Positions 22,785 through 38,843 of a DNA stretch of 64,000 nt are shown piece by piece; the stretch's first letter is position 1, and each line of letters opens with the position of its first letter. The stretch covers positions 512,001-576,000 of the forward strand of contig CM000152.2 in NCBI GenBank assembly GCA_000004695.1. The letters are read 5' to 3'. Made by a program: the position numbers and the translations under genes. Origin of the DNA: Dictyostelium discoideum (taxonomy: Eukaryota). Under the pieces are notes generated by a model, which saw only the letters and a program-made list of their open reading frames with translations, was not told where the DNA came from and did not search any database.

Positions 22785-23598
22785 TTTTTATTTTTTTTTT
22801 ATTTATTTATTTAAATTTATAACTGCCAATGGGAGAGAAAAAAAAAAAATAGGGGCGTTACATATAAAGTTTGAAAAAAAAAAAAAAATAAAAAATAAAA
22901 AAAAAAAAAAAAAAAAACCGGAAAATTTTTTTTAATTATTTTTTTATTTAAAATTAATTATTTTTTTTTTTTTAAGAATGATTATAAATATACTTATATA
23001 TAATTTATTTAAAATTTTTTTTAAAGAATGATTATAAGCATACTTATATATAATTTTTTTTATATTTATTTATATTAATTTTCAGCAATACCTAAAAAGA
23101 AAATTGATAATAATAAAAAAAAATAAATATAGAAAAAAATTTACCATATTGAAAATAATATTTATTTTTTTTTTTTTTTCCAAATAAAAACAATTGGAAA
23201 TTCCATAAATGTCAATGTGATATTGAACATAGAAAGAAGATTAATTTTTTTTTTTTTTTCCAAGATCCAGTTTTAGAAAATAATTAGAATCAAGAAAAAT
23301 TCAGCAAGCAATCGAACATCAATCAATAAAAAACACACAATTTCTATAAAAAAATAAAAATAAAATTCTAGCAATATCTCAAATTGATTTTTTTTGTTTT
23401 GGTTTTGTTAATTAATTTTTTTTTTTTTTTAACTTTTTTTTTTTTTTTTTTTTTTTATTAAGATCTATATCATCTATATCTTATGTGATGTAAAAAAAAA
23501 TTCTTATATTATTATTATTTTTTTTTTCATTTTTTTATTTTTTTTATTTTTTTTTATTTTGATACTTTTATTTTTTTTTTTTTTTTTTTTTTATTTAT

Positions 23599-26500
23599 TT
23601 ATTCATCACCAACATGAATTAATTGATCAATACCCAATTTCATATGATTTAATTCACGATATCTTTGTTCACAAGTTTTTTCTAAAAGATCCTTTTTAGT
23701 GATAATACCTTTGAGTTTGTTATTTTCATTTACAACAGGCATATGACGTAAACCCATTGTTCTGAATAATTGAAAAGCTTCACTAACTGCAAATTCAACG
23801 TTAACGGTGATTACAGTTAAATTCATAACATCGGAAAGATCAATCTCTTGAGAGTAATCAGCTGGATCGAAATTGAAATCATTGACCGATGGTAATTTCC
23901 AGGTTAATTTGGTGGTATATTCAATGTGAGAATAGATTGCTTCAGAGTTTGGAATGTAAACATCAGAGATACGTTCTAAAATCATTAATAATTGAGTACG
24001 TAAAATGAGACCTTTGACCAACTTCTCCTCGTCATTGTTGACCACTGGGAAACCATTGTGACGAGTTTCTTTCAAGACACGAAGATATTGCCCAAGGTGT
24101 CTTTCTCTGCCAAATAGACTGGTTTCTTTGCCATGATATGTTTACACATCATCAATTTCATCTCTTTGGATTGATCTAGTTCGAGGTATGGAATGTATTT
24201 CATTTGCATCAAAAGATCAAACAATGGATGAATGAGAGCATCGGCAACCCATTTGGCAGTCATAACTGTCAACATCAATGGTAAGAGATATTTTAGACGA
24301 TCTGTGATCTCAATGAGAATAACAGTTAAACTAATGGTAAGACGAGATACACCACCCATGAAGGCAGCTGCACCCATCACTGCGTAAATACCAGGATCAA
24401 TGCTGACCTTGTCACCCAAAATATGGTAAACCACCAAACCTACGAAACGACCATACGACGCACCAATAACAAGCATCGGTACAAGGGTACCCGTTGCAAC
24501 AGCGCAACCAGCAGTATAGGCAGCGAAAAACAAATAGAAAATACAAAACAAAAACATTGGCCACAAACCCAACCGTTCAGTATTGGTAACATTATTTGAA
24601 TTGACCTTTAGTAAATTGGTGATTGACTCCTCATAGGATGCGAAAATAAGTGTTGCCATTGGATTATACCAACCCTCCTTACAATTGAATCTCTTGAATT
24701 CACTCAACTCTTTAAGAGTCTCTGCTGGATCATATGAAACACCCGTACCATTGGTGATTGTACTATTATAGATTGAACTATTATAGAATTTACTATTATA
24801 GATTGTACCATTGGCGATTGTACTATTGTAGAATGTACCATTGATGATGGTACTATTATAGAATGCACCATTGGTTAATGTAACATCGGTGAGTGTACTA
24901 TTACCGACAGAAGGGATGAATGGTGCAGTATTTTGACAAGAGAAAAACAATGGTAAAAAGAATTGAATGCAAGTTGAGAGACCAATGATTAAAAACACCT
25001 CCAACACACGTAAACTCTTGATTTTATTGATTTTCTCACGACGAAACTCTGTAACCTTTACATTGATCCATGTGAAGAGGGCCCCACCCAAACCACCCAA
25101 AACACCAATCAAAAGGAATGGAATGATCTCGAACCAATTGTAAGACTCCTTATCACCAATACCAGTGTTGAAAATGATTAAACCTGTTAAACTACCCGAA
25201 TTGGATTGAAGTACGTTCATAGTGTAAGTGGCGACCATGCAACAAAAGAAAGCTCTCCAAGTGAGTGCAATCGACCAAAACGACGACACCTCCTCCAAAC
25301 TAAACAATGTGCCACCCAATGGGGCAGAGAAGGCTGCTGCAACACCTGCACCTGCACCACTGGTAACAAAGTCTCTCTTATCCTTATCATTTCTAAATGA
25401 TCTTAGGAATGGAATTTTAAAACCAAACTCTTTGCTCTGTGCTTGTGAAAAACCGTTACCAACAATAGCACCAATATGAATCATTGGACCCTCTGAACCA
25501 GCTTGTAAACCACTACTAACTGCCAAAACCATTGATAAAAATTTAGTCCACAATGTCTTCATCTTCAATGTATGTGGTATCTTTGTTCCATTCAAATATC
25601 CCTTCACCTCTGGTATACCCGATCCTGCTGCTGTTGGTTCATAATAAACTGCCAACAATGATGAACAAGTTGCCAATAATGTATTTAATAAAAAGTATGT
25701 TAAAAATGCTAAAAATAAATCCAATTCCAAAACTAAAAAAAAATAAAAAATATTAATATTAATATTTACATATTATTTATTATTATTATTATTTATTATT
25801 AAGTTAAATTTACTTACCTGCTTCAACAAATTTAAATTTATATTTTGTAATATTTGAAACACAAGCATGTGAGAAATATGCGATTACACCAATAAAGATA
25901 CCCATAAATAATGAAACTATCCAACGTAAAACTTCGTGATCAGAGGCTAATTTTGAAAAGTTTTTATACAACTCATTACGATGGGCTTTGTTGTAGATGG
26001 TGACGTAATCTAGACATTCATACTTTTGAATTTGTAATTTATCTTTGAACCAAACTGCACGCTCTGCTACCTCGTGTTGTTCAGCCCTACGATGATGCTG
26101 CTCACGAATATTGTCTACTGGTTTCATTGTGGTTTGGGCAATGGTCTTCCAACCCTCTTCAATGGCCTTATTGGAATGCTTCACACGTGTCTCTATCTTT
26201 TTATTGGACTCGCCAATCTTTTGTTTAATCTTTTTATTTGTCTTTCCAAAAGTTTTACTCACTTTAGCTCCAAATGAATCACCCTCCCTAATATCGTCAC
26301 TTGACCCATACAAATTCTTTGGTCTATATGTTGAATGATCTCTAACAATTGGTTGTAATATTATACCATCCTCAGTCTCCTCCTCCTCTCCCTCTTCATT
26401 CTCAATGTATGCTCTTCTTTCTTCATCATCACCATCATCATCATATGATTCTGTTAATCTTTCTTCTTCTTGAATTCTAACTTTTTTTTTACTCTTTTTT

Positions 26501-29491: not shown

Positions 29492-31982
29492 TTATAAAGT
29501 TGAAGAAGGTAAAGTATAAGATAAATTTGTATAGAAACCATCTTGATTTGGAGAAACATTTGGATTTGTAGCATTGATATGGTAAATGTATTCCCAATAA
29601 ACGTCATCAATTTTAGCACCACCTCTATTGAAAGATTCAGCTGGAGAACCTGTTAAAACTGGGTTAACAATTTTAACGAATAAATGAGTTTGATCGAAAT
29701 AGTATTTGGTTCCATTACTACTTCTAACTTCAGCAGCAGATGAAGCAAGAGTACAATTGAAACCATAAGCATTTTGCCAAGCCCATTTATTTTCAGTTGA
29801 AATGGTGAATGTTGTACCTGGTGGATATGGAATTGCCAAAAAGATATATTGTTGATAGGCGACTTGGGCAGCCCAAACTTGTAAATAGGTTGGTGAACCA
29901 CCATCTAACCATAACATCCAGCCTGTGCTAGTGATACCAGTGATACCGGCATTACGGGTGATTGCTGTCTTTCTAACATCAGTGATACCATCACCGAATA
30001 AACTAACACTACCAACGAATGAATCACCTTCGTTTTGTTCACCACGAATAATTAAATTTGGTACCCAAAATTCGATATTACCAACGGATTTGCTACCTTT
30101 TTGACATACCCAAATGGTCCAGTCATTGTTGTATGTGCATTTACTATCGTCGTAGGACCACCATTTTTCATGTGAACCAACGATAGTTGGAACATGTGTA
30201 CCAACTAATGAACCATCCCAATCGATGAAATTAAAGAATCTAGATGATCCTGAATCTGGAACGATCTTATGACCAATGATTTGTGCTGGTAAAATATTTT
30301 CAAGGGTGATATTAATCGTTGATGAAATGAATTGTGGTTTATAAAGATCACTGAATGTCAAGGCGATAATTACAACATTATCATCATCTGGATAAACAGA
30401 AGTTGGATTTTGAATGAAATTTCTAAATGTAATATGAGAGAGGATAGTTGTAACGTAGGTATCATAAAATTGGAATCCTTGTCTATTGTATGATTGTGAT
30501 TTACTAAGAATATTGCCGGTTTAACCATCAACAATTGCATTTGATAACCATGCTGCACCAAATAATGATGCTGGTCTCATTGAATCATATGCTTCTAATC
30601 CAACAACTTCAACACGATCACCCCAATGTCCTAAACCAAGATTACTTAAATATACTTTAGTATTATTAAATCTCATCCATAGGTATGTACTTGAATCATA
30701 TGAAAAAATACCATCTTTACATGTTGGTCTTGAATGTCTACCTGTATTATAAACTAATAATCCAGTTACTTCATCAGTTATTAATCTTTTTTTTTTTTTT
30801 TTTTTTTTTTTCAAAAAATAAATATTTTTAAAAGTATTAATAATAATTTCATTTATAAAATTTTAAACTATATATATAATTAAAAATTTAGATCTTACTT
30901 TCCACCAACGTAAATTGATGAACCAGAAATCCATTGATAGCCACTTGAATGTGCTGTATTACCTTCAAATACTTTAGTTGTAAATGCTTGTGGTTCCATT
31001 TCAACATTTTTATGATTTCCAATTGGTTTTTCAAGATTTGGGAAACTAAAACCTGCCCAACCACCAGATGCAGAGTTACCAATAATTGTATTATATGCAT
31101 TGGTGATATAGAATCCACTAATAAATAAAAAAATAAAATAAAAAAAACAAATAATTGTTATTAATAGTTTTTTTTAAAAAAAAATAATAATAAATAATTA
31201 AAACTTACCCAGCTGCTGAATCTGCTGGTTGAGTAAGATTTTCATTTTCATAATAAGTTTCACCAGTTTGTGCACCACCTGCTGCTGGTTCACCAATTGT
31301 GTGAACAAATGCAGCTAAATTGTAAGATAAAGTATTATCCATTTCAACACCATCCTCTAAATAATAACAATGTCCATTAACATCAAAAGCAACATTTCTA
31401 GTTAACGTTAAATTATTTGTACCGTGAATAGTATAACAACGATAATAGCTTTTAGTTACAACACAATCAGAGATATAAGATTTTTGGACAACATTTGCTA
31501 AATGGAAGTGAAGTGGATATCTTGCTTTAACATTTCTTTGACCCATCTTTTTCAATTGAATACCTGCAAACTATTATTTAAAATTTTAAAAAATTAGAAT
31601 AAATAATTTTAAAAAAAAAAAAAAAAATAATTTAAATATTTACTTGTCCTTCACCAGATACTAAAACATGACCACCAAATGAATCTTGATCAGATTCATC
31701 ATTACCTTGGAAAATAATTCTTCTTGATAATAAAGCAACTTCAGCTTGATATTCTTTGCCACCATAATGATAAAATTTAATTGGGGTAGTAAATTCAATA
31801 GCTTTTCCTAATATTGATTTAATTGTTAATACTTCATTTTGATTATCTATTTCATCTTTAAATTGACTTGTTGTTATTAAAACTTGTTGGCCAACTTCCC
31901 AATTAATATTATCTTGAACATAAATAATTCTATCACCTAAATTCATAATTTTTTTTTTTTTTGATTAAAGAATTTTAATATC

Positions 31983-32040
<58 letters not shown>

Positions 32041-33240
32041 TTTAAACTTACCTGACCAAACAGTTGATGCTAATTTTGTCCATGAATTATGGTATTGTTT
32101 ACCATGAACTGAAATAAAACCACCAGCAGATACAGCAATACCTTTAGAGCCATAAAATGGTGCAATAGTATCAACCTTTGTTTTTGAACCATGGAAAATA
32201 ATATTTATATTAGCATTATAACGACATTTTGTAGTTCCCATAATGAATTTACCTTGTACTAAGATATCTTTAACATTCATTGTTAAATTTGAATCAGCAA
32301 AAATTAATTCACTTGTAGCTGGAATAACAATTCTTTGGTAAATTGCGGTTTGTGAAATTGAACATGGACTAATTAAAACTCTTTTTCCGGCTGGAATTGT
32401 AATATTTTCATTTGGTTGTGGAACGAGATTATTTGACCATGTCGATGGATTATGCCAATGGACTAAATCAGAAGCAAGGTATGGACAAGTTGATAAATCT
32501 TGTGGATCTAATGAAACGGATGCTTTTGGAATATTAATTAATTCAGAATCTTTGGTTATTAAATTTGGTGGTGCTACTACTGGTTTAGATGGAACAGTGA
32601 TCTTCATATTTTTATAGAAAATAGTGGTATCATCATAATCCATTGCTCTTGAACGATTGACTTGAAGAATTAAAGTTGAAAGACCAAGATCAACTGGAAC
32701 ACTGAAAGTAATGGTTTTACTTTTATATGTAGTTGATGAAAAATCACCGGTAAAAGTAAAAGAATACATTGGTGCTCTATAACTCCATAAAAGATAATCA
32801 ATATCACCTGGTTTGTAGAATGAAAGAGTCATATTTGAATAGGTAATACCTTGAGTCAAAACTTGGCCTAATTTGAAATCAAATGAAAATTGATAATTAG
32901 TATTGGCTTTAAGGGCTGGAGCTGATTGTTTTGCAACAATTAAAAAGTAATCTGGTGCCCATGCTGGAAGTGCAATAGAGAATTCACTTTCAACATCACT
33001 AACTGGTTGAAGGTTATTTGGGTCGGTCATGCTCCAATAGGCCATGTAATATAAATCATTACCGCCATATACAATATCAGAGGCTAAAGAAGTGGTTGGC
33101 AAAGCTGGAGATACTGGTGAATTGGAACTTGCTGGTGTTGGTCTCCAATTTGAATCTGTTGGACATGTATCTGATTTAACACTGCATATTGCTAAAAAAA
33201 GAATAAAAATCTTTAAAATTTTATTATTTATATTTTTCAT
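29492..33240 (-). CDS. Secreted G8-domain / right-handed beta-helix (PbH1) protein resembling CEMIP/TMEM2/PKHD1-type proteins, with at least 6 exons. The reading frame is interrupted by an in-frame TAA at ~30521
   Basis: Exon 1 (33240..~32052) starts with a signal peptide MKNINNKILKIFILFLAICSVKSD, then a G8-like block (…WSNNLVPQPNENITIPAGKRVLIS…IYQRIVIPATSELIFADSNLTMNVKDILVQGKFIMG…), ending at a GTAAGT donor. Exon 2 (~31936..31644; GDRIIYVQDNINWEVGQQVLITTS…EVALLSRRIIFQGN…GGHVLVSGEGQ) ends at GTAAAT. Exon 3 (~31570..31208) has RYPLHFH…NGHCYYLEDGVEM…NLAAFVHT. Exons 4 and 5 are 30888..31118 and 30521..30814. The last exon(s), …29492, continue in the same frame after the TAA (…AIVDG*TGNILSKSQSYNRQGFQFYD…). 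Several N-glycosylation sequons are present. Confidence 0.7.
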
Positions 33241-34405: not shown

Positions 34406-34701
34406 TTATAGAAAGTACTGAGTGAATTATTGTATTTTTTGAGATGTTTAGGAAGTTCTATTGCGGGTGTTGATGATGATTTGTGACACCCCTTGTCCTG
34501 TTTTATCAATTGGTGCGTGGTGTGTTATTTTGTTTTTATATTGTTGATTTATTGAGTAAATTTTATTTGTTTTTATATTTGTTTCAGTTAGAAGTGCTGC
34601 GTCCAGCTTGTTGTTGTCTAAAACGGTGTTTATTATGCTGGCAGATTGGATGGTGTTGGATCCTTGGACGTTCCAAACACCTATTCTTATTGTGTTTTTC
34701 T

Positions 34702-36036
34702 TTATAGTTTTATTTGGGGTAGATTTTTATCTACCTTTTGAAGTTTCTGGTTTATTTTGTCTTCTAACTGATCTTTACTTTGTTCATTGTGTTGTTGGTC
34801 TTGTGTGTTTGTGGGGTTTTTTGATTTATTGATTTGTTTTAGAATTTCCTTGTTGAAGTTGTCTATATCTTCATCCATTTTTGTTTTTATGCTTTTTTGT
34901 CCATATTCACCCAATTTTGGTTTGACTGGTGTTTTGTTGGTCTTGTTTGTTTTGTCTTGTTGTTTCTTTTTTGGTGTGTTTAACAATTTACTTGGTGAAT
35001 CGATAATTTTCGATGGTGTACCATAGGTTGGGCTGAAACTCATGATATGTTTTATTGGAGAGGAGAAGAACCATTGATTTGAAGGGATTGAAAGTGGGAA
35101 TTCTATTTTTCTTATTGCATCAGTGTTTGGGCTGGTGAAGTCGAAGATATCATTTGCCTCTCTAAGTTTTTCTTCCGTTGTTAGTCCCTTTGTTTCGCCG
35201 TGTTGTTTTATTGGTGTATTGTATGGAGATGGTGGTTCGATAGGTTTTTCTGATTTTGTTTTAATTTCTTGATTGTTTATCGATTGTGTATTGATCTCAT
35301 TCTCTATTCTTGTTAGTTCATCTACGTTTTCTAGTGATGCTTCTATTACCTTTTGAGCTGTATCATCTAGGGCCATAAATGTTTTATCATTAGATGAGGA
35401 TGTGATTGGTGGGATAATGATTGTTCTTTTTCCTTGTTTTGGTATTTGTTCTGATGTAGATTGTGGTTGTTGTTCATCTGATTGTTTTTTATTTTTGTTT
35501 TCTTCTTGATTTTCTGGTAATGAGGTTTGATCTCTCCATCCTTTGTTGGAGTGTCCAATTAATGTTAGATTGTCTAGTTCAATGATAGTGTCAAATTCTT
35601 CTACGACTCTTTTCACTGTTTTGATAATTAGAGTTTCGCCTTTAATTTCTGATTTAATTAGTTTACATCCTTCATTTTCTATTACCCATTCTATTTCTGT
35701 GAGTGATTTATACCAATCAAAATCTGTATACATATTTTTTGGTCTTAAAGTGGTTATAAATTGTCCTTTTAATTCTGCATCAAACATATTTACAAAATAG
35801 ATTACTGTACTAATACTGTCTGTGAGAATTTTGAATGTATTATTACTTTTGATTAAAACATCTTTTTTGTCCAAACTTTTTTCTAAATCTTTTTTTATTT
35901 TATCGTCTGGTTCGTGATTGATGTTTATGACGTATTTGAATTGTTTTTTTTTTAATTGAGTTTTATCCACAATTTCGCTTATTTTTTGTAGGCATTTGTG
36001 TTGCTTAATATTTGTGGTGTTGTTTGTGATTTTCAT
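34702..36036 (-). CDS. TRE5-A ORF1 (retrotransposon ORF1 protein, 444 aa)
   Basis: Intact 444-aa ORF inside the element. Its first 63 codons are duplicated verbatim in the downstream B-module copy (ORF 34103..34303, MKITNNTTNIKQHKCLQKISEIVDKTQLKKKQFKYVININHEPDDKIKKDLEKSLDKKDVLIK). Charged low-complexity composition and a size of ~51 kDa fit the published DRE ORF1. Confidence 0.75.
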   Translation of the reverse strand: MKITNNTTNIKQHKCLQKISEIVDKTQLKKKQFKYVININHEPDDKIKKDLEKSLDKKDVLIKSNNTFKILTDSISTVIYFVNMFDAELKGQFITTLRPKNMYTDFDWYKSLTEIEWVIENEGCKLIKSEIKGETLIIKTVKRVVEEFDTIIELDNLTLIGHSNKGWRDQTSLPENQEENKNKKQSDEQQPQSTSEQIPKQGKRTIIIPPITSSSNDKTFMALDDTAQKVIEASLENVDELTRIENEINTQSINNQEIKTKSEKPIEPPSPYNTPIKQHGETKGLTTEEKLREANDIFDFTSPNTDAIRKIEFPLSIPSNQWFFSSPIKHIMSFSPTYGTPSKIIDSPSKLLNTPKKKQQDKTNKTNKTPVKPKLGEYGQKSIKTKMDEDIDNFNKEILKQINKSKNPTNTQDQQHNEQSKDQLEDKINQKLQKVDKNLPQIKL

Positions 36037-36112: not shown

Positions 36113-36149
<37 letters not shown>

Positions 36150-36158
<9 letters not shown>

Positions 36159-37017
36159 TCTTTTTTATATGAAAAATGAAATAATCAAAAAAAGAGATTG
36201 TTGTTGTTGTTTGTTTTTTTCGATCTGATTATTTTTTGCTTTTTTTTTGAAAATTTTGCTACGCAAAATTCTCAAAACGAAACAAATAATAAATTACAAT
36301 AAAGTAAAAAGATGGCTTTTTAAAATAGTTTATTTATTTATTTATTTGTTTTTTAAGTCTTTTTTATATGAAAAATGAAATAATCAAAAAAAGAGATTGT
36401 TGTTGTTGTTTGTTTTTTTCGATCTGATTATTTTTTGCTTTTTTTTTGAAAATTTTGCTACGCAAAATTCTCAAAACGAAACAAATAATAAATTACAATA
36501 AAGTAAAAAGATGGCTTTTTAAAATAGTTTATTTATTTATTTATTTGTTTTTTAAGTCTTTTTTATATGAAAAATGAAATAATCAAAAAAAGAGATTGTT
36601 GTTGTTGTTTGTTTTTTTCGATCTGATTATTTTTTGCTTTTTTTTTGAAAATTTTGCTACGCAAAATTCTCAAAACGAAACAAATAATAAATTACAATAA
36701 AGTAAAAAGATGGCTTTTTAAAATAGTTTATTTATTTATTTATTTGTTTTTTAAGTCTTTTTTATATGAAAAATGAAATAATCAAAAAAAGAGATTGTTG
36801 TTGTTGTTTGTTTTTTTCGATCTGATTATTTTTTGCTTTTTTTTTGAAAATTTTGCTACGCAAAATTCTCAAAACGAAACAAATAATAAATTACAATAAA
36901 GTAAAAAGATGGCTTTTTAAAATAGTTTATTTATTTATTTATTTGTTTTTTAAGTCTTTTTTATATGAAAAATGAAATAATCAAAAAAAGAGATTGTTGT
37001 TGTTGTTTGTTTTTTTT
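36150..37017. repeat. Tandem array of ~199-bp TRE5-A A-modules (4 full units plus a 5'-truncated unit next to the tRNA)
   Basis: The motif taagtcttttttatatgaaaaatgaaataatc recurs at 36155, 36354, 36553, 36752 and 36951, an exact 199-bp period. The units are nearly identical. The outermost unit is truncated at ~37017. Confidence 0.9.
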
Positions 37018-38757: not shown

Positions 38758-38843
38758 ATTAAACATTAAAAAAAATATTCACCCTAATTAAAATATTGGT
38801 TAAAGAATATAAAATAAGGGTGAATATTATTTTTAAAAGATTA

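Follow-up and report, generated by a model that had tools for sequence, protein, structure and literature searches.

The window analyzed here, a stretch of 64,000 nucleotides from chromosome 3 of the Dictyostelium discoideum AX4 reference, contains 24% G+C and is marked by extended A/T runs and small, AT-rich introns. It includes rliB, a five-exon gene on the minus strand whose coding sequence is interrupted by an in-frame TAA, and clcD (DDB_G0278639), a chloride channel gene located approximately 6.4 kb from the rliB stop.

The rliB gene and its protein

The reading frame of rliB comprises 1118 sense positions followed by a terminal TAA, and its four introns are all in phase. Exon 1 (32052..33240, minus strand, as are all rliB features) starts with the ATG at 33240 and encodes an N-terminal hydrophobic, signal-peptide-like segment as well as a G8 domain (residues 267-391; window 32442..32068). 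The Pfam match to the CEMIP beta-helix begins at residue 482 in exon 2 (31644..31936), continues through exon 3 (31209..31570), and finishes at residue 673 in exon 4 (30899..31117). Exon 5 (29492..30785) contains the internal TAA, a weak CEMIP_X match (residues 975-1059; window 29926..29672), and the true terminal TAA (29494..29492). Intron 1 (31937..32051) is 115 nt long, reads GTAAGT...TTTAG with 6% GC, and is the same in assembly GCA_054883475.1. The other three are intron 2 (31571..31643; 73 nt, GTAAAT...AATAG, 4% GC), intron 3 (31118..31208; 91 nt, GTAAGT...ATTAG, 7% GC), and intron 4 (30786..30898; 113 nt, GTAAGA...AAAAG, 7% GC).

The gene was identified as rliB (DDB_G0278243) because the 90% cluster of its best homologue match includes the AX4 entry UniProt Q54YG8 (Q54YG8.2; 1117 aa, "Protein rliB"); the identifier DDB_G0278243 itself gave no match in a literature search. 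When the translation was joined across the stop and used as the query in a homologue search, the proteins retrieved were full-length dictyostelid sequences that combine G8 with CEMIP beta-helix domains. The Pfam scores are 124.7 bits for G8 (PF10162; cutoff, 22.9), 177.5 bits for the CEMIP beta-helix (PF24606; cutoff, 27.3), and 27.1 bits for CEMIP_X (PF24605; cutoff, 27.6). RliB is secreted and combines a G8 domain with a beta-helix of the CEMIP/TMEM2 type.

The closest solved structure is the TMEM2 ectodomain (PDB 8c6i), with which RliB shows sequence similarity at an E value of 2.6e-34. An AlphaFold model of RliB, computed from an input of 48 homologues, has a mean pLDDT of 91.7 and was aligned to 8c6i_A by Foldseek over 1135 columns (TM-score [TMq], 0.56; E = 1.6e-34). 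With human TMEM2 and CEMIP (KIAA1199), which are cell-surface or secreted hyaluronan-degrading proteins, RliB shares the order of a G8 domain followed by a CEMIP-type beta-helix, in addition to the weak CEMIP_X match. However, the identity to TMEM2 in 8c6i is just 17%, and the likeness concerns the gene, not the stop codon. The two proteins also differ at the N terminus, where TMEM2 has a type II membrane anchor and RliB a signal-peptide-like segment. RliB is not known to have any enzymatic activity or substrate.

RliB has a paralogue, ComF (communication mutant protein F; DDB_G0273257, Q557B8), which is 56% identical over the full length and has the same domain order. ComF carries a glutamine at the position aligned with RliB residue 776 and is encoded at a separate locus, where the reference has no stop-codon problem. 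Gene conversion from a paralogue was also considered as a source of the rliB stop and was rejected, as no rliB paralogue is present within the window. In culture supernatant of strain DH1-10, RliB was the dominant protein (353 spectra) of a 170-kDa secreted band, and ComF, its 124-kDa paralogue, was found in that same band (PMC12139333). These mass spectrometry data were obtained from DH1-10 and are given without peptide positions (PMC12139333). The mass that we computed for mature RliB equals 121.6 kDa for the full-length protein and 83.1 kDa for a product truncated at the stop.

The in-frame TAA and its curated annotation

Around the interruption, the minus strand reads ...GTT GAT GGT TAA ACC GGC AAT..., translated as V D G * T G N. 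The TAA at window 30523..30521 (chr3:542521-542523) is codon 776 of rliB and the sole interruption in the 1118 sense positions. The initial annotation had reported this codon from the open reading frames at 30521..30814 and 29492..30361, which it took to share a frame. Both points hold: the codon is present in the minus-strand sequence, and the two frames are the halves of exon 5 (30785..29492). The TTG "start" of the lower frame is only a product of mechanical open reading frame listing. Apart from codon 776, the joined translation is 100% identical to the full-length proteins of other assemblies, which excludes a chance pattern. Termination at codon 776 would remove the remaining 343 residues (776-1118), including the weak CEMIP_X match.

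The surrounding sequence had further been described as beta-helix, which is roughly right, except that the Pfam CEMIP beta-helix match stops before codon 776, at residue 673. In the AlphaFold model, beta strands persist at residues 725-774 and 792-809, and residue 776 sits just after the strand formed by residues 765-774. The bases flanking the TAA had also been called unusually GC-rich. This proved uninformative and was dismissed as a signal, since the segment in question (GGTTAAACCGGC) has 7 G+C among its 12 bases, a value reached by approximately 5% of the 12-mers in this coding sequence. By comparison, the remark that no intron signal accompanies the TAA was accurate. The true rliB introns are 73 to 115 nt long, contain 4 to 7% GC, and run from GTAAG or GTAAA to AG.

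Removal of codon 776 from the window translation gives exactly the deposited AX4 protein (P0082; Q54YG8.2, 1117 aa), from which it follows that the official rliB model skips the stop. The curated coding sequence omits exactly these 3 nt, at a site without a splice signal. Gene models of this kind have been described before. Singh et al. (2017; BMC Genomics 18:120, PMC5282741) report an inspection of all D. discoideum gene models, in which 119 introns shorter than 5 bp were found in 102 genes, all of them labelled "dictyBase Curator." The authors argue that arguably none of these tiny introns is genuine and that they are artificial constructs offsetting errors in the genome sequence. Two entries of the accompanying Table S1 (Additional file 3, PMC5282741) fall in the window: chr3 542520-542524 (minus strand, length 3, Parent=DDB0252586) and chr3 536084-536087 (minus strand, length 2). 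With window positions taken as chromosome 3 positions minus 512,000, the length-3 entry lies exactly on the TAA at 30521-30523 and the length-2 entry exactly on the "AT" at 24085-24086 in clcD. These two coordinates place the window at positions 512,001 to 576,000 of AX4 chromosome 3, a range in which Table S1 holds no further tiny introns. The rliB stop site is thus already known, as a curator patch listed in the 2017 paper.

The closest published parallel is DDB_G0279477, for which Singh et al. describe two 3-bp introns at positions that read TAA in the reference and TTA in 100% of the RNA-seq reads (PMC5282741). As in rliB, these tiny introns cover an in-frame TAA for which independent sequence gives a sense codon. 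The two cases differ in that the correction was from TAA to TTA by RNA-seq in DDB_G0279477 and is to CAA (Gln) by another genome assembly in rliB. The RNA-seq strain in that study is said to be AX2, not AX4. The article makes no statement specific to rliB and offers no read counts for it (PMC5282741).

The official model, with its 3-bp intron exactly at codon 776, might suggest that the cell itself overcomes the stop, through a real micro-intron, programmed readthrough, or recoding of TAA. We regard this as scarcely credible. A GT...AG pair cannot fit into 3 bases, and the single GT...AG pair nearby (GTTAAACCGGCAATATTCTTAG, 22 nt) would shift the frame and delete residues that are conserved in all homologues. 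A programmed stop would be expected to be conserved, whereas the orthologues all have CAA or Gln. None of the 48 homologues has a gap at column 776, so that the 1117-aa form does not represent a natural variant. In addition, the intron bears the "dictyBase Curator" label, and the paper that lists it deems such introns artificial (PMC5282741). The initial annotation had named RNA-seq evidence for a micro-intron among the observations that would overturn its reading of the TAA. A 3-bp intron does indeed stand in the official model, but as a bookkeeping device of the curators and not as a splicing event.

Comparison with other assemblies and species

The window was compared at the DNA level with four other assemblies, designated L001 to L004, of which L001 is GCA_054883475.1 and L004 is from D. 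cf. discoideum. In L001, the gene has the same length as in the window (3749 bp), and the sole difference is at window 30523, where the coding strand has T in the window and C in L001. Codon 776 is accordingly CAA (Gln) in L001, which gives an uninterrupted open reading frame, and the four AT-rich introns are identical to those of the window. Identity extends over 1148 bp upstream and 1728 bp downstream of the gene, beyond which differences in homopolymer length appear. The corresponding L001 protein (ACTFIT_010002, GCA_054883475.1) is 1118 aa long, carries Gln at residue 776, and otherwise agrees with the window translation throughout.

For two diverged D. discoideum strains, the differences from the window amount to 70 to 71 of the 3357 exon sites (2.1%) and approximately 10% of the alignable intron sites, which marks L001 as the same haplotype as AX4. 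L001 is nevertheless an imperfect proxy for AX4: at window 36108 and 36097, D. cf. discoideum (L004) sides with the window, so that the differences seen there are changes or errors private to L001. An exact look-up of the AX4 RliB product and of the 402-aa exon 1 open reading frame among public assemblies returned no record.

A comparison with other strains and species had been proposed as a check on the stop, and it gave CAA or Gln in every case. The codon is CAA in all four assemblies, L001 to L004. At the protein level, Gln is found in every rliB orthologue, namely, those of the D. discoideum strains, D. cf. discoideum, D. citrinum, D. dimigraforme, D. firmibasis, and Heterostelium. In eight other assemblies, drawn from D. 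discoideum and sister species, the encoded protein is full length and has Q at position 776.

Selective constraint was estimated against three diverged strains. The dN/dS ratio equals 0.11 to 0.15 for codons 1-775 and 0.014 to 0.046 for codons 777-1118. By these ratios, purifying selection on rliB is strongest in the region that follows the stop.

These comparisons bear on the idea that rliB is an evolutionary pseudogene decaying in D. discoideum, for which the in-frame stop, and nothing else, can be cited. One lesion is present in 3357 coding bases, the four introns keep their phase and GT-AG ends, and no other difference from the intact allele occurs over 3749 bp. The dN/dS ratios are low on both sides of the stop and lowest downstream of it, the other assemblies encode full-length proteins with Q, and RliB is abundant in culture supernatant. 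The intact haplotype, the orthologues, and the dN/dS values together exclude an old pseudogene, and we consider decay of any kind to be exceedingly improbable.

Several further differences between the window and L001 were observed outside rliB. A 199-bp tandem repeat at window 36130-37016 has 4.5 copies with 99% matches, compared to approximately 8.5 copies in GCA_054883475.1 (L001 5445-7128), where it is 796 bp longer. Either the reference has collapsed the repeat or its copy number truly varies. Two clusters of A/T substitutions are located in AT-rich intergenic sequence, at window 38763-38841 (13 within 80 bp) and 23402-23499 (7 within 100 bp). Many homopolymer runs differ by 1 to 15 bases; the window is usually longer, and either assembly may be in error.

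Origin of the stop codon

We propose that the rliB TAA is very probably a base-call error in the 2005 Sanger AX4 reference. The codon departs from CAA (Gln776) by a single-base C-to-T discrepancy private to the AX4 reference, whose plus strand has A at window 30523 (chr3:542523) instead of the G of other assemblies. On the proposed reading, the true rliB gene would be intact and encode an 1118-residue secreted protein. The dictyBase curators, who could not change the genome sequence, bridged the stop with an impossible 3-bp "intron," yielding the deposited 1117-residue protein that lacks Gln776. Of the origins offered by the initial annotation (nonsense allele, pseudogenization, or sequencing error), the last is the best supported, by the assemblies, the literature, and the annotation, while pseudogenization found no support. 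The base difference, its restriction to the reference, the curated patch, and the intact, constrained state of the gene are direct observations; that the difference arose as an error and not as a mutation is what we infer from them.

The quality of the reference near rliB can be judged from clcD. Relative to four concordant assemblies, the window has a private 1-bp deletion in this gene that shifts the frame ahead of the CBS domains. It also has private substitutions at 24178, 24176, and 24172, which fall within 7 bp and change YLEPNPSKEM to YLELDQSKEM, and one more at 23835, for a total of five private differences at a distance of 6.3 to 6.7 kb from the rliB stop. Excising the "AT" at 24085-24086 restores the frame, which then reads ...AEKDTLGN followed by LRVLKETRHNGFPVV. 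In Singh et al., clcD is described as missing a reference base, with RNA-seq support, and the omission as masked by a 2-bp intron; the TGA reported there four codons past the missing base agrees with the window sequence (PMC5282741). The sections of the paper that were consulted make no mention of the four substitutions (PMC5282741). The clcD C terminus, used as a homologue query, yielded just two JGI fragments, both unrelated. In clcD, within a few kilobases of the rliB stop, the reference is of demonstrably low quality.

The frequency of discrepancies in AX4 as a whole has been documented by resequencing. Of 1917 candidate departures from the reference recorded in AX4 mutation-accumulation lines, 1916 were common to the lines and were put down to reference errors, ancestor-clone differences, or mutations that preceded the split, and a mutation rate of 2.9e-11 per site per generation was measured (PMC3466296). 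On this basis, stocks would be expected to differ by about a handful of true mutations genome-wide, whereas discrepancies run to hundreds or thousands. Random substitutions in the rliB coding sequence create a stop in 5.5% of cases, so that spurious stops are to be expected in such AT-rich coding sequence.

The main competing explanation is a genuine CAA-to-TAA nonsense allele, private to AX4 and present in the sequenced clone. The AX4 product would then have 775 residues, or be absent if the mRNA is degraded, making the strain a natural rliB null. In its favor, the deposited reference does carry the TAA, one transition is enough to produce it, and the lack of downstream decay or of any further difference from the intact allele has the look of a very recent mutation. 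In addition, nitrosoguanidine, a mutagen employed in the isolation of AX3, from which AX4 descends, would be expected to produce C-to-T changes. DH1 is presumably derived from AX3, as is AX4. Nonetheless, a stop inherited from AX3 is unlikely, since the AX3-derived strain DH1-10 secretes RliB at full-length size. That observation counts against the nonsense allele more generally, as does the scarcity of mutations expected between stocks at the measured rate, compared with approximately 1900 discrepancies in three AX4 lines (PMC3466296). Moreover, the neighboring clcD lesion has been read as a reference error from RNA-seq (PMC5282741), and the curators bridged the rliB stop rather than calling a pseudogene. 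We consider a nonsense allele improbable, if well ahead of the remaining alternatives, which even in combination have very little probability.

Should the TAA be genuine, the Dictyostelium reference strain in widest use, AX4, would be a spontaneous RliB null or carry a C-terminal truncation, and strains with CAA or with full-length RliB, such as DH1-10, would be the wild type. The curated gene model would in that case hide an unrecognized difference between laboratory strains in an abundant secreted protein.

If the stop is instead a base-call error, as we favor, it matters mainly as housekeeping and is of low biological interest. The deposited RliB sequence (Q54YG8, 1117 aa) is probably wrong by one residue, the absent Gln776, and the tryptic peptide across codon 776 would consequently be unmatchable in proteomics searches. 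The AX4 reference would also still hold single-base errors hidden by impossible introns, two of them here within 6.4 kb.

The region next to rliB shows one more difference between assemblies. A gene of 444 residues is located on the minus strand at window positions of approximately 34690-36020 (L001 7220-8554), between a TRAPP-subunit gene and rliB, and has no Pfam match. The diverged D. discoideum strains L002 and L003 yielded neither a gene call nor a hit to its start. Sequence matching the start is present in D. cf. discoideum (L004) as well, and the distribution looks like presence/absence variation.
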